Assembly: GCA_964634945.1 (NCBI GenBank)
Contig: CAZWMG010000002.1
Coordinates: 38,661-102,660 of the forward strand
Origin: an uncultured Planctomycetia bacterium
GTDB lineage: Bacteria; Omnitrophota; Gorgyraeia; JABMRG01
DNA: 64,000 nucleotides
Direction of reading: 5' to 3'
This document shows, one piece after another, positions 5,248-55,950 of this stretch (positions are counted from its first letter, which is position 1; each line of letters opens with the position of its first letter). The notes beneath the pieces are model-generated. The model searched no databases and was not told the origin of the DNA. It saw nothing but the letters and a program-made list of their open reading frames with translations. Both the position numbers and the translations under genes were made by a program.

Positions 5248-5460
5248 CCAGCGCGCGCAAATGCCTTGTTGCGCTTAATTTTCTTGACAAAAAATCCGCC
5301 ATGTTATGCGCTCATACCTTATCCATGCCTGATATCTGCATCGGAAAGCCCACATTTTCTTGCACCATTTAATTGCCCGCGTAGTTGACTTTTATTAATA
5401 CTTATGATATACTTTTATTAAACTATCAAAAAGTAATAACGTAAAATTTAGGTTATTATT

Positions 5461-12478: not shown

Positions 12479-12483
12479 TAAAG

Positions 12484-35097: not shown

Positions 35098-35661
35098 ATG
35101 GTGAAGAATTTTTTTAGCGTTAAAGGGGCTATTATAGTTATGGCTATAGCGGTTGTATTTTTGGTGGGAACGGCCGATGCTTTTGCTGACAGGGCATCGA
35201 GGATTGAGAGAGAGGCAATATCGGCACTTAAAGAGCTCTATAAAACTTCACCTAAAGCAAAAGAGCTCGGCGAAGAGGCCAATGGAATTCTAGTTTTCCC
35301 AAAAATGATGAAGGGTGGTTTCATCTTTGGCTTACAGTCCGGACAGGGCGCTTTGATTAAAGGTGGAGTAGTGGATAGCTTCTATAAAAGTACCGCAGTG
35401 TCTTTTGGTTTGCAGGCCGGAATAAAACAGTTTGGTTACGTTATTTTCTTTATGAGCGAAAAAAGTCTGGACTATCTTGACCGTACAGATGGATTCGAGC
35501 TGGGCACCGCACCAAGCCTTGTTGTAGTTGATGCCGGAATTGCAAGAACATTGAGCACAACATCAATACAAAAAGGTATTTATGCCTTTTTCTTCAGCAA
35601 AAAAGGATTGATGGCAGGACTTGGAGTCCAGGGAACAAAGGTAACAAAGCTTAATCTGTAA
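35098..35661 (+). CDS. SYLF (Ysc84/DUF500) lipid-binding-domain protein, secreted
   Basis: 'GILVFPKMMKGGFIFGLQSGQGALI...FGLQAGIKQFGYVIFFMSEKSLDYL...GTAPSLVVVDAG...GLMAGLGVQGTKV' matches the SYLF repeat pattern. Confidence 0.6.
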   Translation: MVKNFFSVKGAIIVMAIAVVFLVGTADAFADRASRIEREAISALKELYKTSPKAKELGEEANGILVFPKMMKGGFIFGLQSGQGALIKGGVVDSFYKSTAVSFGLQAGIKQFGYVIFFMSEKSLDYLDRTDGFELGTAPSLVVVDAGIARTLSTTSIQKGIYAFFFSKKGLMAGLGVQGTKVTKLNL

Positions 35662-35680: not shown

Positions 35681-35733
35681 CAATGTAAAGCTATGCTTTA
35701 AAATTATCATTTTTTAGAGCATAGCTTTACATT
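35681..35733. repeat. Perfect 17-bp inverted repeat hairpin (terminator-like)
   Basis: 'caatgtaaagctatgct' and its exact reverse complement 19 nt downstream. Confidence 0.4.
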
Positions 35734-35998
35734 GCATAGGCTATAAAAAATCGAAGCAGGGCCTCTTCGAAATGAACCCAGACGATTTACGTTATTTACC
35801 AAGAAGGAGCGGACGCAGTCTAAGCAAGAGTATTTCTTACATAACGTGTTGATTTTAATAAAATAACATAAAGCGTCTAGTTGTGTTCGCCACTTAATTG
35901 TCCCGTGTATCAGTAAAATTTTATGTTTAGAAACTTACACAATCTATGGTATAATCGGTTTTTAAAAATCTGACTATTAAAAAGAGAGGAGTTACAAT

Positions 35999-40435: not shown

Positions 40436-41698
40436 ATGACACAGACGCCACGACAGACAAACACTTCCTTTTATGGCCTTGGGATCGCGCCGAGAATACT
40501 CGATATTCTGGACAAAATAAAATTTACTATCCCTACGCCCATCCAGCACAAGACCATACCTATAGCTATTGAAGGCAAAGATGTAATCGGTGTCGCGCAA
40601 ACAGGTACCGGTAAGACACTCGCCTTTACAGTCCCTATTATGCAGCGCCTTTCCCTTAGAAGAGGACGCGCGCTCATTCTTGTTCCGACCAGGGAGCTTG
40701 CTATACAGGTTGATGAGACGTTCCAGAAGATCGCGCCATCACTTGGCATAAAGACCGCTGTTATTATAGGTGGCGCGTCTATGCAGCTGCAACTAAAAGC
40801 ACTAAGGACGAATCCGCGTGTTTTGGTAGCTACTCCTGGCCGACTTGTTGACCACATGGAGCGGCGCACAGTGCTTTTGGCTGATATAAATGTCCTGGTT
40901 CTTGACGAGGCGGATCGCATGCTTGATATGGGTTTCCTGCCGCAGATACAGAAAATTATCAAATTTATCCCACGAAATAAGCAGACCATGTTTTTTTCAG
41001 CTACTATACCGACAGAGATAGTCAAAATGGCGGCAGAGCATATGAAACTTCCTGTGCATGTTGAAGTCGCGCCATCAGGAACTACCGCGGAGCGTATTAT
41101 ACAGGAAGTCTTTATAATTAAGAAAAGCTCAAAACAGCGGCTCATGATAAAATTACTCGATCAGTATCATGGACCGGTGCTGATATTCTCCAGAACAAAG
41201 ATAGGCGCCAGGTATATCGCGCGTGGTTTACAACGCGCAAACTACAAAGCCGCGGAGATCCATTCCGACAGGTCACTACCCCAAAGAAAAGAGGCTCTTG
41301 AGGGTTTTAAGGCAGGAAAGTACAAGATACTTGTCGCTACTGATATCGCTGCTAGAGGTATTGATGTTACGGGTATAGAACTTGTTATAAACTATGATCT
41401 TCCGGATGACACTGAGAATTATGTGCATCGTATCGGCCGTACAGCCCGGGCCGGGCATGAGGGGCGTGCTGTATCTTTCGCCACGCCTGAGCAGGGTGAT
41501 GATGTGAAAAACATTGAAAAACTCATTAAGGCCCCATTGCCGATAGTTGAGCACCCCGGATTTCCAAAAGAAAAATTTGTCAAAGAGATATCACCACGAC
41601 AGGGCTCAAAGCCGTATCAGTCCAGACGATCAGCGCCCAAGAAGCCTTATCCCCGCGCAAACCGAAACAATTCCCACTATAAAAGTCGAAAACGTTAG
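40436..41698 (+). CDS. DEAD-box ATP-dependent RNA helicase
   Basis: Q-motif 'TPIQ'. Walker A 'AQTGTGKT'. 'PTRELA', 'VLDEADRM', 'SAT', 'ARGID' and 'HRIGRTARAG' motifs. Basic C-terminal tail. Confidence 0.85.
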   Translation: MTQTPRQTNTSFYGLGIAPRILDILDKIKFTIPTPIQHKTIPIAIEGKDVIGVAQTGTGKTLAFTVPIMQRLSLRRGRALILVPTRELAIQVDETFQKIAPSLGIKTAVIIGGASMQLQLKALRTNPRVLVATPGRLVDHMERRTVLLADINVLVLDEADRMLDMGFLPQIQKIIKFIPRNKQTMFFSATIPTEIVKMAAEHMKLPVHVEVAPSGTTAERIIQEVFIIKKSSKQRLMIKLLDQYHGPVLIFSRTKIGARYIARGLQRANYKAAEIHSDRSLPQRKEALEGFKAGKYKILVATDIAARGIDVTGIELVINYDLPDDTENYVHRIGRTARAGHEGRAVSFATPEQGDDVKNIEKLIKAPLPIVEHPGFPKEKFVKEISPRQGSKPYQSRRSAPKKPYPRANRNNSHYKSRKR

Positions 41699-41773
41699 TT
41701 TTCCAACAGCCATCTTGAATAAAGACGCGCTATTTTACTGGTATTTAATATTCCGATGTGATACAATGCACAA

Positions 41774-43201
41774 ATGAAATACAAACACGCCTTATTTTTA
41801 AACCCATATGCTATTCGTAAGACCAAATCCGCGTCTATTACGAGGCTATTTCCGCCAACAGGACTAGAGTTTGTCGCTACAAGCGCCAAGGATTATGTTG
41901 AAGATCTCACCCTTCTTGACTTGCGCTATGAAGAAGAGCTCTCGGATATTGACAAGCTGCTGGAGTTTATAGATAATAAGGGCATAGATATAATATGTGT
42001 TGGCATAGGATGGGACAGAGAATTTAAAGATGTTTGCGCCCTCTTAAACGCTATGCCCGCTAATATTCCGTTAGTAGTTGGTGGACACAAGGCTACGGAA
42101 GAGGCAGGTGACCTTTTTGAGCTATGCCCTAATATAGATATCCTTGTAAGAGGAGAAGGCGAGGAGACGATAAGAGATATTATGCGGGATATCCCGCTTA
42201 AAGATATACTGGGCATCTCTTACAGGCAAGGCGATAAAGTGTTACATAATGACACCAGGCCACTTCCGGAGATTGATATAATAAGTTCACCTGATCGCAG
42301 TTTAAGGAGAAATCAGTACCGATTAACAGTGCAGGGAAATAATATTACGAACCTGACATACGATACTATCCTTAGCGCGCGAGGCTGCCCGTTTAATTGC
42401 AAATTCTGCACCTTTACCCTAAATCCACTCGGCCAGAAAAGGCCATACGCGGAAAGGAGTGTGGCCTCCGTTCTGAAAGAAATAGAGAGTATAGAGGCGG
42501 ATATAATCCTTTTTAGTGATGAGAATTTTGCGACAAATGCCAAGAGAGCGGAAAAGATCTGCGATCTGATAATAGAGAAAAAGATTAAGAAGCGTTTTCT
42601 GGCGCAGGTACGCATAGAGATTGCTAATCATCCTCAATTATTGAATAAGATGGTCAAGGCTGGATTTAAGATGCTATCATTAGGCATAGAGAGTCCGCAT
42701 GATCATATATTAAAGGAACTTAACAAGGGCTTTGATTCAAAGAAGATAAGAGAGGCCTTTGCTGTTTTTAGAAAGTATCCTATATTTTACCACGGCTACT
42801 TTATTTATGGTAATATAGGTGAGACGGAAGAAGAGATGCTCTATATCGGCAAATTCGCGAGAGAGATAGGGGTCGATACCATAGCATGCAGCAAGCTTAG
42901 GGTTAGCAAGTTTTCGCCTTTAAAGAAGTTCGTGGATGAATCGCCGAGCCACTACGTTACGGAAAAAGGAGAGATCTATTCTGATGCTTGCAGCCATTCT
43001 GACCTCAAGAGAATAAATAAAGAAACAAAGAGAATGTTCTACACGCCCTACAAGGTGCTTCAAATAACAAAAAAATTTATCAGTACACGCTGGCTTACAT
43101 CAAAAGATATTATTCCGTTGCTATTAGTGGTGCCCGCGTTATTAAAAAGCACCATCGCCAGTGAGAGGCAGAAGGCGAGATCAAAGAACAGACAAAAATA
43201 A
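41774..43201 (+). CDS. B12-binding-domain radical SAM enzyme
   Basis: 'RGCPFNCKFCTF' is the CxxxCxxC radical SAM motif. N-terminal Rossmann-like B12-binding region. Confidence 0.75.
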   Translation: MKYKHALFLNPYAIRKTKSASITRLFPPTGLEFVATSAKDYVEDLTLLDLRYEEELSDIDKLLEFIDNKGIDIICVGIGWDREFKDVCALLNAMPANIPLVVGGHKATEEAGDLFELCPNIDILVRGEGEETIRDIMRDIPLKDILGISYRQGDKVLHNDTRPLPEIDIISSPDRSLRRNQYRLTVQGNNITNLTYDTILSARGCPFNCKFCTFTLNPLGQKRPYAERSVASVLKEIESIEADIILFSDENFATNAKRAEKICDLIIEKKIKKRFLAQVRIEIANHPQLLNKMVKAGFKMLSLGIESPHDHILKELNKGFDSKKIREAFAVFRKYPIFYHGYFIYGNIGETEEEMLYIGKFAREIGVDTIACSKLRVSKFSPLKKFVDESPSHYVTEKGEIYSDACSHSDLKRINKETKRMFYTPYKVLQITKKFISTRWLTSKDIIPLLLVVPALLKSTIASERQKARSKNRQK

Positions 43202-43349
43202 CACATTGTAATTAGTATAAGTGCTTAAGATAGCATGATGTCGGATTTTTGATGAGGCTGCAACTCTTCAGATGGCATATTAAGCATGGTAAGTTTAGCA
43301 TAGATAACAGCTTCTTAAATATCCGCATTATAGAGTCCTTAAAAGGCCC

Positions 43350-44291
43350 ATGAATAAAGAGCAAAAATCCGTGAAAGATATTTTAATCGAGCCTCATTAT
43401 AATAGTGAAGGCTTTGTCGATTATACCCATAGAGGCCAAACCTATAAACTGTGGTATGCTATTATAGGTTCCGGCTGTAAGCCGCCTGTATTAGTTTTGC
43501 ATGGTGGCCCGGGAGGCAATCACCACAACCTAGTGGCATTTCAGGCGTTAGCTGACGAGCGGGATGTAATTTTTTATGACCAACTTGGCTGTGGAATGTC
43601 AGATCGACCGGACAATCGATCACTGTGGACTGCTAATCGATATTTTGATGAGGTGTTGGCGATACAGGACGGCCTGAGGTTGAAGAGATACCATCTGATA
43701 GGTCATTCATGGGGCACCATGCTGGCTGTTGGTTTTGCAGCTAAATATACAGAGAAGATATTGTCTGTTTCTCTTCATAGCCCCATTTTGAGTTTTCCAT
43801 ATTATATCGAGCATGTAGCCAAAAAGCTCAAAGAGGAGTTGAACCGCCACCATAAAAAATTCGCGCGGATAATAGACGATTATGAGCTAAGCGGGATTGG
43901 GAAAAAGAGCGGCTATGACAAGGCTTGCATGGAATTTATTAAAAAACATGTTACGCATACCTGGCCGCTACCAGAGGCTATGAAGAGGTTAATTGCCGGT
44001 CGAAATACTACAATTCATGATGTTATGGTTGGAAGCGGTTCCGAATTGAACGTATTGGGAAATCTAAAAACAGTGGATGTTATATTACAGTTATCTCAGA
44101 TAGGCGTGCCCGTTCTTATGACCTGCGGAGATGATGATCTATGTACGCCTGCTTTTACTAAATGGCAAGCTGAATTTGGCAAGGGCATTAGCCGTCATAT
44201 TATACATGGAAGCGGCCATATGACCCCGGTGGATAAGCCTTTAGAACTTATCAGCTTGCAAAGGGATTTCTTAAGAGACGTTGAAAGATAA
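43350..44291 (+). CDS. Proline iminopeptidase-family alpha/beta hydrolase
   Basis: 'LVLHGGPGG' and nucleophile elbow 'GHSWGTMLA'. Confidence 0.7.
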   Translation: MNKEQKSVKDILIEPHYNSEGFVDYTHRGQTYKLWYAIIGSGCKPPVLVLHGGPGGNHHNLVAFQALADERDVIFYDQLGCGMSDRPDNRSLWTANRYFDEVLAIQDGLRLKRYHLIGHSWGTMLAVGFAAKYTEKILSVSLHSPILSFPYYIEHVAKKLKEELNRHHKKFARIIDDYELSGIGKKSGYDKACMEFIKKHVTHTWPLPEAMKRLIAGRNTTIHDVMVGSGSELNVLGNLKTVDVILQLSQIGVPVLMTCGDDDLCTPAFTKWQAEFGKGISRHIIHGSGHMTPVDKPLELISLQRDFLRDVER

Positions 44292-44474
44292 CATAACAAA
44301 CAGAGATCGCTTGCTAAATGGGTAAAGCAACCTATAGTGTATTATATATTAGTATTTTCATTATAATGTGCCGCCTATACGGGCAAGGCGCTTGCAAAGG
44401 CAAGCCCCATTATTACTTTAAAACCCCGTTTTTTCCCTACTATAATAGCAAATTCACCCCAAACACCTAAAACA

Positions 44475-44528
44475 TTTCAAGACCGGTTCTTGAGCACAAC
44501 CGATCGTGCTCAAGAACCGGTCTTGAAA
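44475..44528. repeat. Perfect palindromic hairpin (22-23-bp stem, 8-nt loop) upstream of the giant gene. Copy 1 of 2.
   Basis: 'ttcaagaccggttcttgagcac' | aaccgatc | 'gtgctcaagaaccggtcttgaa'. Confidence 0.6.
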
Positions 44529-44554
44529 CAATTTTCCTAAATTTAGAATTTTTC

Positions 44555-44583
44555 TTGACACATTAGCGATTTTGTTGTATTAT
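44555..44583 (+). promoter_or_regulatory. Consensus-like sigma70 promoter (TTGACA-17-TATTAT) for the giant gene. AGGAGG RBS at 44672-44679.
   Basis: 'ttgacacattagcgattttgttgtattat'. Confidence 0.5.
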
Positions 44584-44684
44584 TTAAAACAATTGTAAAT
44601 AATATTAATTACTTTTTAAAACAATATTAAACATCTTGATTATTGTTGATTTCCAAATCAATATAAAAAACAAGGAGGTCCTAA

Positions 44685-47600
44685 ATGGCCAGAAACATTA
44701 ACAGATTCCTATCATATCTAATTATCATAGCGTTCTTATCAACATCTACTAATCTATCCTATCTATCACAACAAGAATTCCAAAGCCAGACAGATACATT
44801 GAGATCCCAGGCAGCGGTCCTTGGATTAGATATCTCTGCAATTCAGGCAAGGCTTGAGTCGCCGGCTCCAGATGTAGCAAGGTCAAGCTCTGCTGGTGAT
44901 GACTCAGATGAAGTCAGCGATATTATGGTTCAGAGCTTCATGCAGAACAATACCGTTGTATTTATTAATAAGGCATTGGAGACAGTAGAGCTTACAGATC
45001 TACCGGCAAGCTACAAAGAGCTTTCAGACAAGTATAAGGGCATACTTTTACAGGAGATAGGAAAGAAAGGTATAGTGGCGTTATTCCAGAGGCTTGAGGA
45101 AGATGCTAATGACTTGTTTAAAGAAGGCAAGGAGAAAGAGGCAACAAATCTTTATAAGTCAGTAATATTCTTTGCTAAGGTTACGGACGCGCTTATAGTG
45201 CATGATAATGAGTTTGACTGGATAGGCAATATTAGCCTTTTAGGAGGAAAGATCGACAACTCTCTTATGCTTTCAAAGGGAAAATTAGAAGTTCCCCCGT
45301 TTTTTGGTATTACATCCATGTTCCAGAAGTATGTATGGTTATATAATGATCTGCTGCCAAAGATGAGAGATATCGCCTTTACAGTCGATCCACAGAATAA
45401 TACAGCGACATCCTCCGCACAGGCAAGATTTGAGCAATTGATAAAAGATACTCATGTGCCTGAAGATTTAAAGTTAATGCTTGAGATTGAGGCAAGAAAG
45501 ATAGCGGATCGCGAGGGTTACGCGTTAACAAAAGAGGAAGCAGACAAGCTTGAGACAGAAGCGATAGAGATTATACTCAGAAGCTCCCAAGGTTTAGAGG
45601 ACAGGCCGGGGATACCTTCTGCTGGTATCGGTTCAAGTGTGCCGACAATGGGCACTGATGGCATGCTGGATGTATTCAAGGATGTCGCCGCATCTGCGTA
45701 TCTTAGAAGGGCGTTAGAATATAGGGATAAGATAGCTATAAGCACATGGTTGCTTTCAAGGATGAACATAGATGAGCTTAAACATATAGTTAATAAGCTT
45801 AAAGGCTTGTCTGAGGTTACGTCTAAGGTCGAGGTTGGCGGGATATTTTATGATACCAGCACAATCGTAGAGGACATAGAGGCCAATCTTTCAGAGGATT
45901 TGCGTTCAAGGAAAGAGTTTGTTAATGTTTCAACATTGAGAGTACTTACATTACTGGAGTTATTGCAGCAGCAGAGCGCTAAGGACGATATTATTGATAA
46001 AGCATTAGTAGAGATAAGAGATGTCCGCATAGATTGCCTTGACGCGGCAAGGATAGGCGGCGGTATACAGACACAGACCATGCGTTCGAGTGAATATTCT
46101 ATTGTCGGCTTCGCGTTAAACAAAGCGACAGGTTGGACAGGTGACGCGAATGATATGGTTGTTATAGATTATGACATCTCCTATGGCAGGGGGGAGCTTA
46201 TTGTGCAAGGCTCTATAATCAGTGATCATTACAAGATATTGCTTAATCTAAAGACCGGTAAGGCCATTATATTATCGAAAGAATGTGGTTCAAAACTCGC
46301 TACATTAAAACGTGCCAAGGCAGGTGAAGAGATAGAGGTCTGGGCAGATTCTAAGCATGAGACAATAGAGACAGTTATTGCGGAAGAAGGAAAGGAATAT
46401 CTAGTAGTAACTCCTGTAGAACAGCGTCAAAGATTTGTTGTTTCAGATAAGAAAGCTATAGAGATAGCGCACAAGATATTAGAGGCTAACACTGTTCATA
46501 ACTCCGGAAGAACCCAGGTTGTGCCGGTAGATATGGAGGCTTGTTATTACCATGACACAAAAGGGAAGTTGCAATATTCCATAGTCCAGAAGAGAGACTC
46601 CGCTATAAAATCAGGTTTCGATTTTGAGGACCCTGATTTTGTTATTCATGCCGGTAAAGAGCCGATAGCCGGGTTAGCAGACGCTGCACAGGAACAGGGT
46701 CATATGAAGGCAAAAGGTTTTGAGACTCAGAACGCCGCAAGTGGTGTAACAGTGTGGGTTGAGGAGCCATCTGCTGACAGAGTTAAAAAGGCGGTAGAGA
46801 ATATATGGGAAGGCGCCAGAGAAGCCGCTTTAAATGAATTTTTACCGCAGGCGCATCCCGATCTCTATACACCAAATGATAAATCAGCGATAATAGAGAA
46901 GATATTAAGAGATAAAAAGATAGTGGATACCGGAATACAGGATGATTTTGATGTAGAAGGTTTTGATTTTGATAAGGCCCGTATCTTAGAAAGAATAATC
47001 AGCAAAGATTCTACACAAGAGGAGGCCATAAAAGAGATTGAAAGTGCTTTTTCAGGTAAATTGGAAAAGGAAGCTATCGTCTCTATCGCTGTGGGAGCAT
47101 TAAAACTCTTTAAAAATACAGCTAATTTAGAAGATAGAATGAGAATATTATCTTCTATAATCAGAGTAAATATATTTTCCTCGCCAAAAGCTGATTTAAA
47201 AAGAGCCTTTATTGAAGAGCACGCGGGAGTACTGGAAAGAGATGTCTTAAATAGGCAGTTTGACAAGATAAAGGCAATGATCAAAGACGGGATAACTGTG
47301 GTAATGGTGACGCCTGAAACAAATCCGAATTTTAATGATATTATGAAGTTTGTAGACGAAAATGGCGGCGCGACAATTACACGGCAAGGAGGTAGGTCTG
47401 CCCACGCTATTATTATATCTATACAATTCGGTTATTGCGTAGTAGGCGGAGCGGAATTCAATGATTCAGATCTTCTGGAAAGAATTAAAAATGGTGACCA
47501 GATACTTTTGACGGTAGATGGTAACAAGGGACAGGTATACGATTTAGAGATACCTATAACGAGTTTCTTTAGCGCGTTTCAACCAAAGCGTTGGGGTAAT

Positions 47601-50600
47601 TATGGGGGAGATATTGGGCTCATAACAAATGCTCCTAATGAAGTTGAAAAGGCATCCAAAAACCATCATTGGCAGGTACCTGTGGATCATGATATGTATC
47701 CTTATATGGAAGGAAAGAAAAGCGTAGGTTATTATTCTGTAAGCTTGGATAGGATAGAGGAGATACTAATAGAATTAGGCCTTGATTTTCGCGGTGCATA
47801 TGCGTATGACAGGATGAACGCGATAAGGGCCAAGGAACTTGATGAATCCACGTTATCAGAGCGCCAGAGAAGCGATGTTGGTAAGTTAAGAGGCAGGCGC
47901 GATCTAGTAACTAAGGTGGCTAAAAAGGTTAATGAGAGGGGCTTTACATCAGCGGTTGAATACCTGCGTCATGAACTGGCTAGCCACTTTAAGCAGATGC
48001 TTGCTACTACAAAACCGGGGCAGGTTGTGCAAGTCAGATTAAGAGATTTAAAGAAGAGAGAGATACTAAAGACTCAGGATACTGCCGAACTTTTTTATAA
48101 TGACGAAGAGGCCTCAATGATAGGTGACAGAGGAACAGGCCTTGAGGTTCATGATGAAAATATAGAGGCGATAGATCTACAGGTTCTTGCTCTGGAAGAT
48201 GCTAGAGCAGAGGCAGAAGAATTAGGTGGGTTAGGTGATTTAGGATTTATGTTTGTTTTTATAAGACGAGTATTAGATGATTCTGAATTAGGCATAGAAT
48301 CAGATCTTAAGAAGGGCCTTAACAGGCTGCTTAAGCTAAGAAGAGAGGGCAAGATTAAACGCATACCAGCGCATGTTGGGGTAATGTTTGAATTGGTAAT
48401 AAACGCTCTTTTGGCTGAGGAGCTCGCTGCGATATTAGCTGATTTTAGAGAGACTGTTAAAAAAGAATTCAATGAGGATATATCAACTTATTTTTCAAAT
48501 GGAACAAATGACCTTACACAGTCTGTCAAGGGAAGCAGGGATGAGACCAGGTATGTAAGTATGGATATAATGATGCCAAATGGTGACATTGTCAAAGGTA
48601 TAAGAGTATTTTATGAGGGCGATCCAGCTGTTGGCGATACGATAGCGCACGGCGCTTTTGTAGCCAAGAAATATGGCCATAAAAGAGGTAGCTGTGGCGA
48701 ATACTTTAATAATCTTTTAAATGCCGGCGATCCTGAATCGATTGACAGTGCAAGAGAGGGTTTTGGAAGGCTCGATTCCGGTGGAACGAGTATCAAGGTT
48801 TTTCCAAGGGCCGTAAAGCTTCTTGCGGATTCACAATTGGCAAAACAGCGCATACCTACTAATGTCGCGGTAAAGGCAGAGGTTGTTGCGGAAGGCAAAT
48901 CTTTGCATGAAAAAGGCGCTGTACACAGGAGGGCGGTCTTTATAAGATCAGAAGAAGATTTTATTACAGAGCGCGTTATTTATAGAGACGGTGGTAAGAA
49001 TAGCGAAGTAAGGTATGCGCCTAAGGCGGTAGAGGGGGATATTTTGATATTGTCAACGGATATTGCCCCTGATAATAAAAAATTACTGGAGGCTCTTGAT
49101 TCTCAGGCAAGCGGTGTAGTGCTTGCAGGCAAGAACGGGGTAAACATAAAAGTGTTACAAGCCTTGCTTGTAGAACGTAATGTTCCAACTATTGTGATAA
49201 AGAAAGAGATATTTACGAGATTGACTGATCTTAAGCAATATGTCTTTGATTTTGAGCGAGGCGCGATATATACAGAGAGCAAGATATCTTTTGATATAGA
49301 AACTGCGGAAAATAAAACAGCGTATGCGCATATAGATTATGACGCAAAACCTAAACAGACATCTGTTGAGACAGTAGATATGGATCATATCTATAATACG
49401 ATCGGTGTCCACCCGCTTGCCCTAACCCTATATGCGTTACATACGGGAGAGATAGAAAACTCTGTTATAGAGACAATAGATGGCGGACAGGTTGTGCGAA
49501 AATTGGAGAAGATACTTTCGCAACAGAGGATACCTCTGCCTAATAATAAATTTCCGGATATGTATAGGGACGTCAAGGAGCTCCTTGATTCGCACAATGT
49601 TGATAGTGTGCGGGCCTTAATAAATAAGGTTACTAAGCAAGCTGTAGAAAGGCACAGAAAAATTTTGCCGAAAGGTACTACGCTTGCCTTTGGTACGTCG
49701 CAACAGGATGCCTGGGCATTTGAGGAGCTAAAATGGGGCAAGCGTGAGACAGAGCTTGAGCTCAATGTATTCAATGTGCCTATAGATTTAAGGGGCCTTG
49801 CCAAGACCATATCCCCTGGATATGGCGATATATTCGAGATGTTTCTTGAGGTAGTAAAGGAAGAAGGGCTGGATATCCAGTTTAATTATGTGCAGGATTT
49901 AAATATCCTTGATGCAGCGATAGAGTTTCTTAATCAGAAAGGGTTAGTGCCTGGAGAGGATGGCTTTAATCTCGGTATGAGCGCGTCTACATCTCACAAC
50001 TTTATAGTAGCATATCGTTATTTCAGTAAAAGAGATATATCTTTTGTTAAGTTTGATGACGAGCTTCTACTAATGAACTTCGCGCTAGCTAATCTTGATC
50101 ATCATACAGATGTAAGGCGCTGGGATGGCAGCTTTGAGTCTTTGATCAATATTAATGAGAGAAGTTACCAAGAGGCATTAAAAAGAGCAAAGGCCATGCT
50201 AAGGACCGCTATGGTTAATCACGATGTAACAGAGGTAACAACTCCCAAAAGCTCCTCAAGCGGCAATAGCGTGCTTAATGAGGCTATGAAATTAGGTGTT
50301 CAGATAGAGCTTGATAAATTATATCTTGCAAGAAAGGCTGATGAATCAGAGAGTACAACTCGTGCGTTTAGTACGAGATTTGTAATAGCAGGAGATGAAT
50401 TCTTTGATAATGAGATCACTACTATGCTGGAGAATTTTAGAACCAAGATTCAAAAAGAGTTTGGTGAGGATGCGACAATTTCTATTTCAGCAGATCCAAA
50501 CGGACCACAAACAGACCTTTCTGTATCTGTATTATTAATACCTAAGTTCACTCCGGTTGCCCAATCAGCTATTCAGGCACAGTTCGATGGGTTGCTCCAG

Positions 50601-52517
50601 TCAATAAAAGATAGCGAGATAGCAGGTTCAAAAGAACAGCTTGGCATAAGGCTTACATTATCAGGAAATGATTTTTTATCTGATGAGTTTGAAGCCATGT
50701 TTGAAGCTTTCAATAGCCAGGTTAGAGATAATTTTGGCAAGAATGTATTCCTAAGTGTTTCAGGTATCGCAGATGGAAGAGAAGGCTTATTTGATTTAGG
50801 GGTCTTAGTAGAGAATGTTAGTACCACGCTGAAATCCAAAGGTTCTTTAAACGTAGTAGGCGACTTTACCCAGTCTGTCAGGGGCAGCAGAGATGAGGAT
50901 GGTTTCGCAACAGTATCTAAGAGCTCTTCAAGCGGTACCATGCTTGAGTCAGGATCAGACAAAAGATTGGCTGTTCAAAGAATGGTTATTCAAGCAAAGC
51001 TCGATTGGCTATATAACAAAAGGGAAGCCATTAGAACAGCACGCTTTAAAGAGCAGCTTAAAGTAAGGTTTACTTTACCATCAGATGTGTTTACCTCGAT
51101 TGGCGTGAAGGATATCCTAGAGGCTTTTCGCGGCAGGATTCAAAAAGATTTTGAAGAAGATGTGAAAATCACTTCTACAGGATATGCGGATGAAGGGGGT
51201 GGAACTATTGATGTGCTTGTATCAATACAGCCTAACAGCGAATCAACAACACCTAGAAGCCATTCAGGCGACACGAACTATGCCGGTATCAGCGAGCATC
51301 ATGCATTAAACGCAGAAGGCGTAAAATATTTTAAGGAACGGATTGAATCAATGGATCCAAGCAATGCAACAGAGGTAGCAGTTGCTCTTTTGTATCCAAT
51401 AAATGGTACGCTGCTTACTTCAGCTACTGCCGCAATGAATAAATTCAGAATTTCTGCCAGAAAAGAACAGGGCATAGAAATAGAGACTTCAATGCTAACT
51501 GATAAAACCGGTATTACCTTATCTATCGGTGGCAACGGAAGTAAAAAAGAGCAAGAATCTAGTGTTAATATATGGAAGACCTCTTCAGGTGGCACTATCC
51601 TTGTGTCAAATACAGAAAAGATATCTACCTTGGTTAGAAATCTTAAAGCAAGTGTTAATGCTCAAGAGAGATTTTCTATCGCCCTTGAGAAGCTTAATGA
51701 AATAGGTCCGGCTGCGGCATCTGAGGCAAAAGAGATCTTTGAAGGCATACAAAAAGAGTTGTTTCATAAGCTTGATGAAGATACTATTGATGTGCTAAGG
51801 ACCTCTGGTTTAACTCTATCCTCATCTGATAAAGAGGCATTGAGGGATATGGTAAGTATCCAGTATCAAGCAGAACAGTATATAAGCAATATCGAAACCA
51901 TAATATATGCGGATAAAGGCAGATTATCGGAGGATACTGCGCCTCGTGTAATGATATTACCAGCGACAACAGCTGTATCAAGCCAAGTTGTGCTTGCCGC
52001 AGAAGAGCTCCAAGCGATAAAGGATAATCTTGGGGTTATAACAGTAGTTAGCAATGACCCTATCGGAACAATTAATAGTATCAAGAAAGGCAAGATACTC
52101 TTTGATGTAAAAGGATCCAATGTCAAGGTCCCTGCTAATAATATTGCGGTAATGCTATCTGAAGATCAGAGAAGTATCGCAGGCGATGTGAGCAAGGCGC
52201 TAGGCACAAACAATACACTCGTAATGAGCAATATATCTACTTCTCAATATGTGCCATTTTCACAACTTGCGATGCTTGCAAAGGTTCAGCTTATACTCAA
52301 CAAAATAGGCGTAACATCAAGCGAAGCAGGGCCATATAGAAGCGCGTTTCTTGCTATATGGAAGGGTGTAACAGGTGCTCCATTTGTTGGTAGTATTGAA
52401 AAGTTTATGGCTAACCCTGTGGCTTACGTTATCAGCATATTGTCTGCACCGGTATCAACACTTAGCGATATAGAAATAAAGATATTACATGACAAGGCTG
52501 CCAGAATCTGGGCGTAA
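44685..52517 (+). CDS. Giant 2610-aa protein with an N-terminal hydrophobic leader, a ~460-aa N-terminal extension, a complete PEP-synthase-like phosphotransferase core (nucleotide-binding N-domain, phosphohistidine swivel domain, PEP-binding TIM-barrel) and a ~1200-aa C-terminal region of degenerate repeats
   Basis: Swivel 'TRQGGRSAHAIIISIQFGYCVVG'. Barrel 'MIGDRGTGLEV', 'ELVINALLAEEL' and 'YFSNGTNDLTQSVKGSRDE', colinear with E. coli PpsA. A degenerate second copy reads 'VGDFTQSVRGSRDE'. Four '..F(R/N)..(I/V)(Q/K/R)K(E/D/N)F.ED' repeat modules. Confidence 0.7.
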   Translation: MARNINRFLSYLIIIAFLSTSTNLSYLSQQEFQSQTDTLRSQAAVLGLDISAIQARLESPAPDVARSSSAGDDSDEVSDIMVQSFMQNNTVVFINKALETVELTDLPASYKELSDKYKGILLQEIGKKGIVALFQRLEEDANDLFKEGKEKEATNLYKSVIFFAKVTDALIVHDNEFDWIGNISLLGGKIDNSLMLSKGKLEVPPFFGITSMFQKYVWLYNDLLPKMRDIAFTVDPQNNTATSSAQARFEQLIKDTHVPEDLKLMLEIEARKIADREGYALTKEEADKLETEAIEIILRSSQGLEDRPGIPSAGIGSSVPTMGTDGMLDVFKDVAASAYLRRALEYRDKIAISTWLLSRMNIDELKHIVNKLKGLSEVTSKVEVGGIFYDTSTIVEDIEANLSEDLRSRKEFVNVSTLRVLTLLELLQQQSAKDDIIDKALVEIRDVRIDCLDAARIGGGIQTQTMRSSEYSIVGFALNKATGWTGDANDMVVIDYDISYGRGELIVQGSIISDHYKILLNLKTGKAIILSKECGSKLATLKRAKAGEEIEVWADSKHETIETVIAEEGKEYLVVTPVEQRQRFVVSDKKAIEIAHKILEANTVHNSGRTQVVPVDMEACYYHDTKGKLQYSIVQKRDSAIKSGFDFEDPDFVIHAGKEPIAGLADAAQEQGHMKAKGFETQNAASGVTVWVEEPSADRVKKAVENIWEGAREAALNEFLPQAHPDLYTPNDKSAIIEKILRDKKIVDTGIQDDFDVEGFDFDKARILERIISKDSTQEEAIKEIESAFSGKLEKEAIVSIAVGALKLFKNTANLEDRMRILSSIIRVNIFSSPKADLKRAFIEEHAGVLERDVLNRQFDKIKAMIKDGITVVMVTPETNPNFNDIMKFVDENGGATITRQGGRSAHAIIISIQFGYCVVGGAEFNDSDLLERIKNGDQILLTVDGNKGQVYDLEIPITSFFSAFQPKRWGNYGGDIGLITNAPNEVEKASKNHHWQVPVDHDMYPYMEGKKSVGYYSVSLDRIEEILIELGLDFRGAYAYDRMNAIRAKELDESTLSERQRSDVGKLRGRRDLVTKVAKKVNERGFTSAVEYLRHELASHFKQMLATTKPGQVVQVRLRDLKKREILKTQDTAELFYNDEEASMIGDRGTGLEVHDENIEAIDLQVLALEDARAEAEELGGLGDLGFMFVFIRRVLDDSELGIESDLKKGLNRLLKLRREGKIKRIPAHVGVMFELVINALLAEELAAILADFRETVKKEFNEDISTYFSNGTNDLTQSVKGSRDETRYVSMDIMMPNGDIVKGIRVFYEGDPAVGDTIAHGAFVAKKYGHKRGSCGEYFNNLLNAGDPESIDSAREGFGRLDSGGTSIKVFPRAVKLLADSQLAKQRIPTNVAVKAEVVAEGKSLHEKGAVHRRAVFIRSEEDFITERVIYRDGGKNSEVRYAPKAVEGDILILSTDIAPDNKKLLEALDSQASGVVLAGKNGVNIKVLQALLVERNVPTIVIKKEIFTRLTDLKQYVFDFERGAIYTESKISFDIETAENKTAYAHIDYDAKPKQTSVETVDMDHIYNTIGVHPLALTLYALHTGEIENSVIETIDGGQVVRKLEKILSQQRIPLPNNKFPDMYRDVKELLDSHNVDSVRALINKVTKQAVERHRKILPKGTTLAFGTSQQDAWAFEELKWGKRETELELNVFNVPIDLRGLAKTISPGYGDIFEMFLEVVKEEGLDIQFNYVQDLNILDAAIEFLNQKGLVPGEDGFNLGMSASTSHNFIVAYRYFSKRDISFVKFDDELLLMNFALANLDHHTDVRRWDGSFESLININERSYQEALKRAKAMLRTAMVNHDVTEVTTPKSSSSGNSVLNEAMKLGVQIELDKLYLARKADESESTTRAFSTRFVIAGDEFFDNEITTMLENFRTKIQKEFGEDATISISADPNGPQTDLSVSVLLIPKFTPVAQSAIQAQFDGLLQSIKDSEIAGSKEQLGIRLTLSGNDFLSDEFEAMFEAFNSQVRDNFGKNVFLSVSGIADGREGLFDLGVLVENVSTTLKSKGSLNVVGDFTQSVRGSRDEDGFATVSKSSSSGTMLESGSDKRLAVQRMVIQAKLDWLYNKREAIRTARFKEQLKVRFTLPSDVFTSIGVKDILEAFRGRIQKDFEEDVKITSTGYADEGGGTIDVLVSIQPNSESTTPRSHSGDTNYAGISEHHALNAEGVKYFKERIESMDPSNATEVAVALLYPINGTLLTSATAAMNKFRISARKEQGIEIETSMLTDKTGITLSIGGNGSKKEQESSVNIWKTSSGGTILVSNTEKISTLVRNLKASVNAQERFSIALEKLNEIGPAAASEAKEIFEGIQKELFHKLDEDTIDVLRTSGLTLSSSDKEALRDMVSIQYQAEQYISNIETIIYADKGRLSEDTAPRVMILPATTAVSSQVVLAAEELQAIKDNLGVITVVSNDPIGTINSIKKGKILFDVKGSNVKVPANNIAVMLSEDQRSIAGDVSKALGTNNTLVMSNISTSQYVPFSQLAMLAKVQLILNKIGVTSSEAGPYRSAFLAIWKGVTGAPFVGSIEKFMANPVAYVISILSAPVSTLSDIEIKILHDKAARIWA

Positions 52518-52601
52518 TACTAGATGCAAAATTAGGAACAGGAACAAGGAACAACTTTACAAAATAGTGCAATACTTAAAATGTAAAGTTAGCGAATATC
52601 T

Positions 52602-52651
52602 TCAAGACCGGTTCTTAAGCACGATTGATCGTGCTTAAGAACCGGTCTTGA
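52602..52651. repeat. Second copy of the palindromic hairpin, 84 nt downstream of the giant gene stop
   Basis: 'tcaagaccggttcttaagcacgat' | tg | 'atcgtgcttaagaaccggtcttga'. It differs from copy 1 by a compensatory G:C to A:T change in the stem. Confidence 0.6.
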
Positions 52652-52715
52652 TTTATATTAAAAAAAGATTGCTATTTTTCTGACTTTTAGTTAAAATATA
52701 TCACAATTCTTTTTT

Positions 52716-52791
52716 GGCCCCATCGTCTAGTGGCCTAGGACGCAAGATTCTCATTCTTGTAACACGGGTTCGACTCCCGTTGGGGTCACCA
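52716..52791 (+). tRNA. tRNA-Glu (anticodon CTC) with encoded CCA
   Basis: Hand-folded: acceptor GGCCCCA/TGGGGTC, D-arm GTC-TAGTGGCCTAG-GAC, anticodon stem CAAGA/TCTTG, loop TTCTCAT, T-arm ACGGG-TTCGACT-CCCGT. Confidence 0.8.
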
Positions 52792-52954
52792 TGTACCACT
52801 CGCGGAGTTTATCCTGAACGCTTTGTGGTTCAGGGCTCGGGTACATGGCACAGCCATCCGTCTTCACCGTTGAATATTAATACTCCGGTGCGGCTACGTT
52901 GGATAGGCTGGCGTAGCTTGGACACGATTTAACGCTTGTAAAAAGCGAAGCCTG

Positions 52955-52970
52955 CCCGTTGGGGTCACCA
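52955..52970. repeat. 16-bp direct repeat of the tRNA-Glu 3' end ('cccgttggggtcacca'), 164 bp downstream of the tRNA. An att-like remnant.
   Basis: Identical to 52776-52791. Confidence 0.45.
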
Positions 52971-53107
52971 GAAATGAGTATTATTATGATTCTGTAATTG
53001 ACGAATTATTTATCATATGATATAATATATATACTAAAAAAATTAACGTGAGACCCCTGGCACCTGTCCGCCTTTGGCGGGAAAAGTTAGGGGTTTATTT
53101 TTTTGCC

Positions 53108-54190
53108 ATGAGAAGATTAATAATCTGTATAATATTTATTGCTTTTGTTGTTAATAGCGCAGGGCAGGGTTATGCCTTGAGGTCAGAGTCTACAGCTTTG
53201 TCTTTTCAGACAGATATATCAGATTCACTTAAGGGCCCGGATAAGCCTGGTTTAAATCAGGATAAGACATCATCATGTATTAGCAGTGAAGATGTCCCCT
53301 ATTCCAGATTAGGCGAATCCAATTGGTATAATGAGCTCAATGCTTATCTTGCGGGCATGACTGGTGTGCATCCAGGAGAACAAATCATTGAGATAGGCGC
53401 GGGCACAGGTGCATCTACAGCAGTTTTGTTGGATAAGATGGAGCATCGGGGAAAGATCATCGCGTTAGAGCCAAATCCAGAATATTTAGATATAGCAGTA
53501 AGAGTATTCAAGGATGAACCTGTGAAATTCATCTTGGCAAATGCGCAAGAAACAAATAGCATGATGAGGGGTAGGCTTCCGGCGGATAAGGCTTTCCTGT
53601 TTAATGCCATGCATCTTATTGATGGCCACGAAACTCTTCTTGACGATATTTCCGAGATTATTAAGCCAGATGGGACGCTAGCGTTTAACACAGCTTATTT
53701 CAAGGAGAATAACAGCGAATTCAAAAAGGTGCAAAGGCGTATTTTTGTTAAACTGTTGCGTAACGCCAAGGTAGTGGGGAAGAACATTATGACAAACAAT
53801 CGTACTAGATTTAAGGTTAGATCTATCGAACATTATGAAGAAGCTCTCAAGAAGGCTGGTTTTGAAATCGTTGGACTCAAACGCAGAGCTGTCAAGATAC
53901 CATTTCTAGATATAAAGGATTTCTACAGCGATAAGTCTGTTACAGATTATATCGCACCATCACTTACCCTAGAAGAGCGCGAGGAATTTATTATGAGATT
54001 GGTTATGGATGAAATCAATTTAGCGCGTGATAAGGGTAGAGATCATATCGAGGGGGAGTGGCTATATATTGTTGCGAAGAATTTAAATGGTAAAAATGAA
54101 CCTGCTCTATTTGCAGAATCTAGGATGTTATCACCTAAAGCTTTATTTGCAGAACAAAGGCGCATCAGCGCTATTTCACACTCCGCATAA
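53108..54190 (+). CDS. Class I SAM-dependent methyltransferase with an N-terminal signal/anchor. Internal start of track ORF 53048-54190.
   Basis: 'MRRLIICIIFIAFVVNSAGQGYA' signal. Motif I 'IIEIGAGTGAST'. Confidence 0.55.
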   Translation: MRRLIICIIFIAFVVNSAGQGYALRSESTALSFQTDISDSLKGPDKPGLNQDKTSSCISSEDVPYSRLGESNWYNELNAYLAGMTGVHPGEQIIEIGAGTGASTAVLLDKMEHRGKIIALEPNPEYLDIAVRVFKDEPVKFILANAQETNSMMRGRLPADKAFLFNAMHLIDGHETLLDDISEIIKPDGTLAFNTAYFKENNSEFKKVQRRIFVKLLRNAKVVGKNIMTNNRTRFKVRSIEHYEEALKKAGFEIVGLKRRAVKIPFLDIKDFYSDKSVTDYIAPSLTLEEREEFIMRLVMDEINLARDKGRDHIEGEWLYIVAKNLNGKNEPALFAESRMLSPKALFAEQRRISAISHSA

Positions 54191-54531
54191 ATAAAAAAAG
54201 AGAATGTCCAGAGGGTGGGTCTAATCGTCCTTCTTTTGATTTCGGAGATGCCCTACCACATCCAAACATCCTCATAAGAAATATACCCTATTGTATGAAA
54301 AAGTCAATAGCCGGCCTCAAAAACTTAGCACTTACCCTGATACCAGAATTTGCTTCCCGCCATAGCGGTCAGGCGCAAATACGGTACAGGGTTAATTCGC
54401 ACAGATGAGTTATGTTGTTTTGCTCCATAACTCATGTGCTCATTAAAATAATCCTTGACATTAAATAGGTATTTTTGTTATACTTTTTAAAAAGAGTTTT
54501 TAAACCATGGAATAAAAAGGGGGTTACTATT

Positions 54532-55755
54532 ATGGCAATCAGGCAGACATTATTTAGAGATCAGGTCTTATCTGATCGCGAAAGAAAGAACCTGGCTATT
54601 CTGGATGTTATTAGAAAGAGTGGCCCGGTTACAAGAACCGAGATATCAAAGGTTACAAAGCTTAATATAGTCACGGTATCGAATTATGTTAATAACTATA
54701 TAGACAAAAACTTAATCATTGAGAGAGGTTTTGATGTTTCTACAGGTGGAAGAAAGCCCACTCTCGTTGAGTTAAACGCTAAGATGGGTAATGTTATAGG
54801 CATTGATGTGGGCCCTGTTAATATGGTTGCGGTTATTACTGACCTGACAAATACAGTTGTAGGAAAGACAAAACGCCCGCGCCCTAACGGGCCTATGAGT
54901 GAAGTCATAACTAGTTCTATAGAAATGGTTTATGAGATAATGGAGAAATCAAAGGTCGACAAAAATAAGATAAAAGGTGTTGGCCTTGGTGTCTCCGGAG
55001 TAATCGATTCTATAGCAGGGACAATAAGGGATACCGATCCTACACGCGGAAGGACTACAGGGAGTTATTCCTCAGTTAAATCTCTTGTGCAAAAAGAATT
55101 CAATATACCCACGTTTGTGGGCAATGACGCTACTGTAGCGGCATTTGGAGAAAAGAGGCTTGGCCTGGAGCAAGAGATCGATGATATGCTCTATGTTTAC
55201 TCAGATGTAGGCTGTGGTATTATAATAAAAGGAGAGATATATTGTGGAGCAGGTGGAAGTGCGGGTGAAATGCAGCTTACAGCAGACAACCCAGAACTGC
55301 CTTTGCAGGATAAGGATCCATCATATCTAAGGCCATGGGGAGTTGACCTAGGTATAACAGAGGAAGCGCGTAAGATACTCACCAAAGAAAAGACAGATTC
55401 TAAGATAATGGACCTTGCAGGTGATGACCTTGATAATATTACACCCGATATTATCATCGAAGCTGCTAAGGGCAAGGATAAGATAGCAACAGAGATTATA
55501 GAGAGCGCCGGTGCAAACCTAGGTATTAGGATAGCTTATCTGGTAAATCTATTTAATCCTGAAGTAGTAGTAATCGGAGGAGGCATAGAGCAGGCAGGAG
55601 AGCTCCTTCTTGGGCCTGTAAGAAAGTCAGTAAGGAGCCTTGCTTTTGAGGAGCCGGCAAACACAGTAAAGATAGTGCCTTCAAGGCTTGGTGACAGCGC
55701 AGTAGCATTAGGTGCCGCAGCTCTTGTGTTAAGAGAGATATTTGCTCAAATTTAA
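54532..55755 (+). CDS. ROK-family transcriptional regulator/sugar kinase (NagC/XylR-like). Internal start of track ORF 54475-55755.
   Basis: N-terminal wHTH 'ILDVIRKSGPVTRTEISKVTKLNIVTVSNYV'. ROK glycine-rich 'GLGVSGVID' and 'CGCGIIIKGEIYCG'. GGGGG RBS before MAIRQ. Confidence 0.7.
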   Translation: MAIRQTLFRDQVLSDRERKNLAILDVIRKSGPVTRTEISKVTKLNIVTVSNYVNNYIDKNLIIERGFDVSTGGRKPTLVELNAKMGNVIGIDVGPVNMVAVITDLTNTVVGKTKRPRPNGPMSEVITSSIEMVYEIMEKSKVDKNKIKGVGLGVSGVIDSIAGTIRDTDPTRGRTTGSYSSVKSLVQKEFNIPTFVGNDATVAAFGEKRLGLEQEIDDMLYVYSDVGCGIIIKGEIYCGAGGSAGEMQLTADNPELPLQDKDPSYLRPWGVDLGITEEARKILTKEKTDSKIMDLAGDDLDNITPDIIIEAAKGKDKIATEIIESAGANLGIRIAYLVNLFNPEVVVIGGGIEQAGELLLGPVRKSVRSLAFEEPANTVKIVPSRLGDSAVALGAAALVLREIFAQI

Positions 55756-55950
55756 TGAGGGGTATCAGGATTAATACCAAGCGTTAATATAACCGTATCA
55801 AATAGGACTAACCGTATCATCAGTGTTAGTCCTATTTTTTTTGTATTTATTCAAATATAGATTGACTTCAACCGTATCATATGCTAAAGTTGAATCAAGT
55901 TCAATGATATGGTTGTTTAATTACGAAGCAGTGTCAACAGATAAGGGAAA

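Follow-up and report, generated by a model that had tools for sequence, protein, structure and literature searches.

Two near-identical perfect palindromes stand on either side of a gene for a giant protein in a 64-kb stretch of contig CAZWMG010000002.1 (the window, meaning the whole of the DNA that was analysed). The two hairpins are very likely long-resident copies of a compact REPIN-type element of the Candidatus Orphnella clade, a REPIN being an inverted doublet of repeated extragenic palindromes (REPs), and their bracketing of the giant gene is incidental on the same reading. Each element would be composed of two inverted 21-nt REP units (GTGC followed by TCAAGAACCGGTCTTGA) lying about 8 nt apart. 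Such elements would be non-autonomous and, by analogy with the REPINs of Pseudomonas and the REP/TnpA_REP system of E. coli, would be recognised as folded hairpins of single-stranded DNA (ssDNA), which are then cut and joined by a single-copy HUH/Y1 transposase, the REP-associated tyrosine transposase (RAYT). The RAYT appears to be vertically inherited, and in relatives it is found between cinA and recA, with a copy of the palindrome on each side of it. The window copies would have been inserted into intergenic DNA before the clade diversified, and would since have been either retained or overwritten where they stand. They form strong hairpins where two transcription units end, and they probably terminate or stabilise the upstream transcripts, but as a by-product, and this local effect would not be the reason why the two copies resemble one another.

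The window organism is represented by these 64 kb, and both the link to the RAYT and the census of copies rest on relatives. The loci fetched for comparison are contigs from one metagenome-assembled genome (MAG) and from metagenomes, and are designated by L numbers.

The two palindromes of the window

The preliminary description of this DNA had reported one palindrome upstream of the promoter of the giant gene and another just after its stop codon, and the positions and sequences of both have been verified (Table 1). The arms of copy 1 are 23 nt long and 100% complementary around an 8-nt loop, and those of copy 2 are 24 nt long, again 100% complementary, with 2 nt between them, which effectively gives a loop of 4 nt. 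Across 51 nt the copies are 90% identical. Their stems differ by a single base pair (cttGagcac/gtgctCaag in copy 1 against cttAagcac/gtgctTaag in copy 2), such that the mirrored G-C to A-T change noted previously is the sole stem difference and the rest of the differences fall within the loop. Each A-type arm also holds a small palindrome of its own, TCAAGA-N5-TCTTGA, as read from the sequence.

A chance origin of the palindromes is excluded by the uniqueness of their core, by their folding and by the gap in covariance-model scores. Exact matches to the 13-mer core AAGACCGGTTCTT in the window are confined to these four arms. A covariance model of the family, run with its filters off, finds only copies 1 and 2 in the window, at 76–79 bits, with the next best match at 18 bits. 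The predicted RNA folding energies are -41.8 and -42.2 kcal/mol (z ~ -12), and the predicted value for ssDNA folding is -28 kcal/mol. An Rfam scan of the window at gathering thresholds returned two tRNAs only, with no family covering the palindromes.

A dispersed extragenic family in relatives

A scan of one genome per species with a 20–21-nt arm pattern identified four contigs, all belonging to one MAG, and the same scan of metagenomes added 33 more. From these, 40 copies of the full element were extracted, of which 23 are distinct when the flanks are included, and with the loci that were added later the family occupies at least 16 genomic sites. The family consensus is CAAGACCGGTTCTTGAGCAC-(GAGTACYC)-GTGCTCAAGAACCGGTCTTG. 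Nearly all of the copies are intergenic, mostly between co-directional genes, and lie 9–130 nt past a stop codon. A repeated palindromic element family had been among the possibilities raised at the outset, and it is the one borne out by these sites, where the elements are REP/REPIN-like and have a cognate RAYT. A search of viral contigs for the element gave zero matches, and a phage origin was rejected on this ground.

Candidatus Orphnella occulta, of the phylum Omnitrophota, is the label carried by homologues of the giant protein. The window and the Candidatus Orphnella contigs share about 80–87% identity, and hence the window organism is related to, but different from, the source of those contigs.

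Short single palindromes akin to one arm of the element were also observed. One of these, CAAGAACGGTTCTTG, occurs in L017 (at 2162, 2437 and 2671) and in L002 (at 214), and another, AGCCCGAGAACCGGTCTCGGGCT, is found upstream of a short version of the giant gene (L009 at 2778 and L027 at 4223). They may represent REP singlets or decayed half copies.

A RAYT gene flanked by cognate palindromes

In L004, and in the identical L022, two directly oriented copies of the palindrome flank an open reading frame (ORF) of 193 amino acids (3979–4560 in L004), the stop codon of which lies inside the downstream palindrome. The product of this ORF matches the Pfam family Y1_Tnp at 53.5 bits (cutoff 23). Its sole NCBIfam match is REP_Tyr_transpos, the model for REP-associated tyrosine transposases, at 72.2 bits and therefore below the cutoff of 80. 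Its orthologues score 68–84 bits with this model, two above the cutoff (P0016 at 84.3 and P0028 at 80.1) and three just below it, and the IS200 model gives them at most 17.9 bits against a cutoff of 55. The sole sequence match of the RAYT in the PDB is E. coli TnpA_REP (4er8), to which its NHLHL (HUH) and YIxxNxV (tyrosine) motifs align.

Homologues of the RAYT are present at 58–92% identity in other Omnitrophota contigs. The gene order cinA-RAYT-recA is found in five lineages, in every case examined, over that same range of RAYT identity. Judged from these sequences the RAYT appears to be of the domesticated type, passed on vertically at a fixed locus, which is a mode of inheritance described for domesticated RAYTs (Bertels et al. 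2017, PMC5581495).

The gene is flanked by the family palindrome in L004, L022 and L046–48 and by lineage-specific versions in L049–51, and every orthologue has its own palindrome of about 50 nt on both sides with the same architecture. An inner GAGCAC-N8-GTGCTC is common to the palindromes of all the RAYT orthologues, with the loop AAGTACCC in three lineages, and GTGC is invariant before each inner REP unit in all five, whilst the outer arms differ by lineage (AAGACCGGTTCT, AGAAACGCTYC, TAGGGACGGTACT and GGGGTCAGGCCCT). Most of the RAYT-flanking copies contain a mismatch bulge of 1–2 nt just outside GAGCAC; the dispersed copies, including both of those in the window, are mostly perfect. A transposase that diverges together with its flanking palindrome, and further copies scattered extragenically, are what characterises REP/REPIN-RAYT systems (PMC3116915, PMC8266576), and a system of this kind is proposed here. 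In L046–L051 the RAYT genes are positioned at about 5000–5720, and the 3' end of the RAYT is encoded by the downstream palindrome.

The palindromes at orthologous loci

The context of the giant gene was compared in four lineages: the window, L038–40, L041–43 and L044–45. The order in the window is hydrolase, REPIN, giant gene, REPIN, tRNA-Glu, methyltransferase and ROK. In L038–40 (87% to the window protein) it is hydrolase, GGDEF, a small ORF, REPIN, giant gene, a variant REPIN, tRNA-Glu, methyltransferase and ROK. The upstream part of L041–43 (79%) consists of MMPL, LolA-like, a 430-aa ORF, YgaP-like and only a degenerate right half-copy before the giant gene, which is followed downstream by a decayed REPIN, tRNA-Glu, other ORFs and ROK (L041 and L043); in this type of relative another ORF occupies the methyltransferase position. 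Finally, L044–45 (67%) has MFS, MscS-like, giant gene, tRNA-Glu, methyltransferase and ROK, with a palindrome on neither side.

Orthologues of copy 1, with two stem pairs swapped, are present in L026, L035 and L038–40, and orthologues of copy 2, with other mirrored variants, in L009, L027, L037, L038–40 and L041–43. L041 and L009 retain no more than the degenerate right half of an element before the gene. The earlier view that neither hairpin is a recent copy agrees with this distribution, as both sites are already occupied in relatives that are about 80–87% identical. In the more distant L044 the giant gene, both promoter regions and the tRNA-Glu gene are conserved without the hairpins, on which ground the palindromes appear to be lineage-specific insertions into pre-existing intergenic regions.

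The bracketing of the giant gene thus looks incidental. As a rough estimate, at a density of two copies per 64 kb any one copy would have another no more than 8 kb away in about 20% of cases, although the bracketing would be less expected by chance if there were far fewer copies per genome.

The preliminary description had also considered that the palindromes might be recombination sites delimiting a cassette, and a comparison of synteny does not sustain this. The proposal would make them recombination or attachment sites at the limits of a mobile cassette or island that consists of the giant gene and was inserted next to tRNA-Glu, and it draws on the facts that they bracket a single gene, that copy 2 abuts a tRNA gene, that the upstream neighbourhood varies among relatives with a break at or near copy 1, and that a degenerate right half is left in L041 and L009. 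Yet the gene stays in the same place, followed by tRNA-Glu and then the ROK gene, in every relative checked, including L044 where the palindromes are missing; no empty site was found in the relatives checked, and the bracketed segment, present in all of them, does not come and go with the palindromes. Moreover, each repeat is a palindrome in its own right, upstream of the tRNA gene and not a direct repeat of its end, many unrelated sites carry this element too, and a scan of the neighbouring genes (40436–58536) revealed no integrase or recombinase. The att-site or cassette interpretation is therefore rejected on the synteny of the four lineages as very improbable.

It is equally improbable that the palindromes are operators for a dimeric DNA-binding regulator of the giant gene and tRNA-Glu. 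They are indeed perfect dyad symmetries just upstream of two promoters, but at 46–48 bp the dyads greatly exceed operators in length, their sequence recurs downstream of many unrelated genes and around a transposase, and the promoters are conserved without palindromes in L044.

A third copy, right after the stop codon of the ROK gene in L038, is absent from both L039 and the window, which suggests gain or loss of the element. L038 and L039 (1–13563) are 100% identical for 12 kb, a stretch that includes the giant gene, and then diverge. As a clean recent insertion the case is weakened, since the two contigs diverge before the insertion point. The divergence starts inside the ROK gene, with 38 differences per 1,000 at 12001–13000 and more beyond, and marks the point of a recombination between strains that occur together or else a chimeric assembly.

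With regard to the left side of the locus, comparison of window positions 44292–44474 with L038 positions 973–2790 reveals that two genes of L038 between the hydrolase gene and copy 1 are missing from the window, one for a GGDEF diguanylate cyclase and the other a small ORF (YgaP-like/119-aa). This indel ends at most about 15 nt from the left edge of copy 1. No two of the four lineages agree in what lies upstream of the giant gene, and the break falls at copy 1 or close to it.

Mirrored changes in the stems

When 27 copies are aligned, 12 of the 23 stem pairs never vary (12–14 of 21–23 across analyses). Double-sided changes affect six stem pairs (18 cells), which was reached in two of 500 shuffles, and the covariation score lies above all 500. 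Between the window and L038, eight of the nine stem differences form four compensated pairs, and in a simulation of nine random substitutions four or more such pairs were obtained at P = 5e-7. The comparison shows that the pairing of the palindrome is maintained. In copy 1, the window has CTTGAG/CTCAAG where L035 and L038 have CTCAAG/CTTGAG, and in copy 2 of L038 and L041 a C-G pair of the core has become A-T on both arms. Intermediates are found at orthologous sites, namely a G.T in L008 against A-T in L030 and an A.C in L011 against G-C in L010.

The loops diverge fast, with seven of eight positions and three of eight positions differing between the window and L038. L038 and L037 share 91.8% identity in the adjacent 990 nt, but three mirrored pairs and, on a by-eye reading of the aligned copies, six of the eight loop nucleotides distinguish the copy-2 element of one from that of the other. 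The elements differ more than the adjacent 990 nt, and the element therefore turns over faster than its flanks.

The preliminary description had regarded the compensatory change as evidence for selection on the hairpin. The first part of this stands, in that pairing is preserved beyond chance, whereas selection is not proven, as regeneration or replacement gives the same pattern: the mirrored changes fit selection for foldability, and they fit equally well a regeneration templated by one arm or the substitution of a different member of the family. Bertels & Rainey (2011, PMC3116915) described compensatory changes as common in the hairpins of REPINs, and they noted as an open issue how symmetry returns after an asymmetric intermediate.

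An origin of the mirrored changes in the rebuilding of one arm from the other, whether by quasi-palindrome template switching or by arm-copying while the RAYT excises and re-inserts the element, or in gene conversion between family members, rather than in two selected mutations, is tenable, if at clearly less than even chances. Single steps separate the arm types A (TCTTGAGCAC), C (TCTTAAGCAC) and B (TCTCAAGCAC). Most dispersed copies have one type on both arms (AA, BB or CC), and the RAYT-flanking copies are A/B hybrids with a 2-nt bulge. In several dispersed copies the symmetry extends into the loop (GAGTACTC, GGGTACCC and AGGTACCT). The pair of copy-2 elements in L038 and L037 resembles replacement rather than point mutation, and the open issue raised in 2011 is itself one of restoring symmetry. 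However, the stepwise intermediates described above, together with mismatches that remain unrepaired in some old copies (copy 2 of L038 and of L041), mean that rebuilding is not obligatory.

A further, and unlikely, suggestion is that the symmetry of the dispersed copies is a product of transposition itself, each copy having been rebuilt from a single arm of one of the asymmetric A/B masters beside the RAYT. If this were true, the compact Omnitrophota system would record the way in which a REPIN regains its symmetry once it has passed through an asymmetric single-stranded state, and the 'compensatory' changes in such palindromes would be no evidence of selection on structure. In any case, mirrored changes in palindromes of this kind should not be taken as proof of a selected RNA structure.

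Hairpins at the ends of transcription units

Copy 1 lies 185 nt past the stop codon of the hydrolase gene and 27 nt before the -35 element of the promoter-like site of the giant gene, and copy 2 lies 84 nt past the stop codon of the giant gene and 18 nt before the promoter-like -35 element of tRNA-Glu. Both copies sit exactly where unalignable 3' sequence meets highly conserved promoter sequence. E. coli REPs stabilise the mRNA upstream of them. By analogy, hairpins at the 3' ends of transcripts may here terminate transcription or stabilise the upstream RNA.

These positions allow the relationship to be turned around, such that the palindromes would be host-function hairpins, acting as terminators, insulators or 3'-end stabilisers of mRNA for the hydrolase and giant genes and shielding the downstream promoters, and the likeness of the copies would reflect a common functional design or a co-opted REPIN. 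Taken together this view, which includes the insulator or terminator hairpins listed in the preliminary description, is possible but rather doubtful. It accords with the location of both copies at the end of a transcription unit and before strong promoter-like sites, with the border that they mark between unalignable and conserved sequence, with the high stability of the hairpins and with the stabilising role of REPs in E. coli. Canonical terminator-like sites are also few in the region (23 against 15.3 ± 3.7 in shuffled sequence), and five of the 23 are the palindromes themselves. Nevertheless, the same sequence is present at no fewer than 14 other unrelated sites and around the transposase gene, and termination needs a structure and not an exact 20-nt sequence, yet 12–14 of 21–23 stem pairs are invariant. 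In L044, which has no hairpin, the two promoters and the order of the genes are nonetheless preserved.

The tails of the hairpins bear on the same question. The preliminary description had stated that neither is followed by a clean U-tract, which is correct, in that copy 1 has no T-tract on the + strand and copy 2 has only a weak T-rich tail there, ATTTATATTA. Copy 2 passes a terminator scan on the + strand only when the scan is lenient, and copy 1 passes on the - strand only. An intrinsic terminator combines a short GC-rich stem with a U-tract directly following on the sense strand, and the stems here are 21–24 bp long. Neither the G.T wobbles nor the A.C mismatches favour the sense strand, G.T occurring at about five sites on the sense and three to four on the antisense strand, so that this asymmetry is uninformative for assigning the element to RNA or to a strand of DNA.

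Comparison with known systems

The proposal of a REPIN-type element with its own RAYT can be set against several described systems. As with the REPINs of Pseudomonas fluorescens SBW25 (PMC3116915, PMC5581495), two inverted REP units form one long hairpin, the elements are dispersed extragenically, and the same repeat flanks a putatively single-copy and apparently vertically inherited RAYT. Compensatory hairpin changes are likewise common, and REP singlets or half copies are known there as decay products, with which the half copy of L009 and L041 may be compared. Unlike the SBW25 GI REPIN, in which two REP 16-mers have a spacing of 71 bp (PMC3116915), the present elements span about 50 nt with an 8-nt spacer. 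They also differ from the SBW25 REPINs in their apparently low copy number, in the phylum, Omnitrophota, in which they occur and in the lack of a GTAG-type head, and the Omnitrophota RAYT scores around the curated threshold rather than well above it.

The HUH/Y1 transposase gene flanked by cognate palindromes is also reminiscent of the E. coli 'REPtron', formed of TnpA_REP (PDB 4er8) and the REPs or bacterial interspersed mosaic elements (BIMEs). The 2-nt mid-stem mismatch bulge of E. coli REPs has its counterpart in the RAYT-flanking palindromes. The E. coli REPs are imperfect single hairpins of 29–37 nt after an essential GTAG, in contrast to the GTGC and the mostly perfect doublets of the dispersed copies here. 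The 5' GTAG tetranucleotide is crucial in the REPs of E. coli and Stenotrophomonas (Corneloup et al. 2021, PMC8266576), and because it is absent, with GTGC instead, the elements are not assigned to the group 2/3 REPtron subtype. Their compactness (8-nt spacer), seemingly low copy number and host phylum also set them apart from the characterised REPtrons of those groups. A flanking ATAGC, found beside several copies, was considered as the equivalent of GTAG and rejected on account of its inconsistent sides and distances.

Insertion sequences of the IS200/IS605 type and palindrome-associated transposable elements (PATEs) resemble this system in the fold of their transposase, a Y1 HUH enzyme (Pfam Y1_Tnp), in having subterminal hairpins that are recognised as ssDNA, as would be the case here, and in giving rise to non-autonomous derivatives that bear hairpins. 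An IS200/IS605 element, however, takes its transposase gene along when it moves, and its left and right ends are not alike. In the present system the transposase gene keeps its place between cinA and recA in lineages down to 58% identity and has two identical flanking palindromes, and the score with the IS200 model is far below its cutoff. The elements also resemble intrinsic (Rho-independent) terminators in being GC-containing stem-loops shortly after stop codons, with a weak T-rich tail in copy 2, but their stems are far longer than usual, a proper U-tract is lacking, and it is the sequence and not just the structure that is conserved at unrelated loci.

Several observations weigh against assigning the hairpins to a REPIN-RAYT system. 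A tblastn search with the RAYT found no RAYT in the 64-kb window, returning only a trivial match between the palindrome-encoded C-terminus and the hairpins. Copy number seems low, at two per 64 kb in the window and about five sites per metagenome, compared with tens to hundreds of copies in classical REPIN populations; the single MAG holds six exact arms in four contigs, and exact-match scans and fragmented assemblies undercount. The 5' GTAG is missing next to the hairpins, its equivalent position being taken by the invariant GTGC. The window copies are perfect and are without the bulge of one to two mismatches seen in most RAYT-flanking copies, a mid-stem bulge that in E. coli REPs is needed for TnpA_REP activity (PMC8266576), and they may no longer be substrates of the RAYT. 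Lastly, the sole case of presence and absence lies in a diverged haplotype segment and could be explained by recombination, so that transposition is not seen directly.

Even so, the elements have most of the features by which membership of REPIN-RAYT systems is judged, being repeated extragenic palindromes arranged as an inverted doublet that in relatives flanks a RAYT, with the RAYT matching its model and holding a fixed locus. The literature searched contained no paper naming RAYTs together with Omnitrophota. REPIN-RAYT systems would be extended to this little-studied phylum. In annotation, the hairpins would be labelled as REP/REPIN-type repeats rather than as a regulatory frame or a cassette boundary of the giant gene. 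The system is unusually compact and of few copies, with the RAYT fixed between cinA and recA and the palindromes having co-diverged with it over 58–92% RAYT identity. It provides a clean comparative series for what the transposase reads, with an invariant GAGCAC-N8-GTGCTC and a bulge set against free outer arms.

Genomic context and further observations

Nearly all of the genes in the window are on the + strand, and the features surrounding the two palindromes are collected in Table 1. The core of the giant ORF contains the domains PPDK_N, PEP-utilizers and PEP-utilizers_C, that is, the mobile and phosphoenolpyruvate (PEP)-binding domains in a PPDK/PEP-synthase-like arrangement, and about 800 amino acids at the C-terminus of the protein consist of repeats. 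Orthologues in the Candidatus Orphnella relatives are 2520–2637 amino acids long. At the same locus L009 (2953–5985) encodes a version of 1010 amino acids, in which the promoter, signal peptide, repeats and C-terminus are kept and the whole enzyme core is gone.

Table 1. Positions of the two palindromes and of neighbouring features in the window
Feature	Position	Strand	Remarks
Alpha/beta-hydrolase gene	43350-44291		Upstream of copy 1
REPIN-type palindrome, copy 1	44475..44528	.	Arm type 'A' TCTTGAGCAC on both arms; 8-nt loop AACCGATC
Sigma-70-like promoter of the giant gene	44555..44583	+	TTGACA-17-TATTAT; kept in all relatives, including the hairpin-less one
Giant ORF, 2610 aa	44685..52517	+	Signal-like N-terminus; PPDK-like core; not part of the element
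REPIN-type palindrome, copy 2	52602..52651	.	Arm type 'C' TCTTAAGCAC on both arms
Promoter-like site upstream of tRNA-Glu	52669..52697	+	TTGCTA-17-TAAAAT; almost unchanged in relatives, whether or not they have the hairpin
tRNA-Glu (CTC)	52716..52791	+	Context of copy 2

The sole other palindrome of comparable size in the window is located at 35681–35734, 20 nt past the stop codon of the gene at 35098–35661. It is AT-rich, with arms of 23 nt that are 96% complementary around an 8-nt loop. As a candidate for a second family it was dismissed, having zero copies in the fetched loci and scoring 18 bits with the REPIN family model.

A separate short repeat, the 10-mer AACCGTATCA, occurs five times in the window against an expectation of 0.02 (55791–55879; 56019–56028 on the - strand; 56436–56445). 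Three of its copies are intergenic, between the ROK-family gene and an OEP/AMIN outer-membrane gene, and the first two are kept in L039. The AACCGTATCA repeats could be an operator array.

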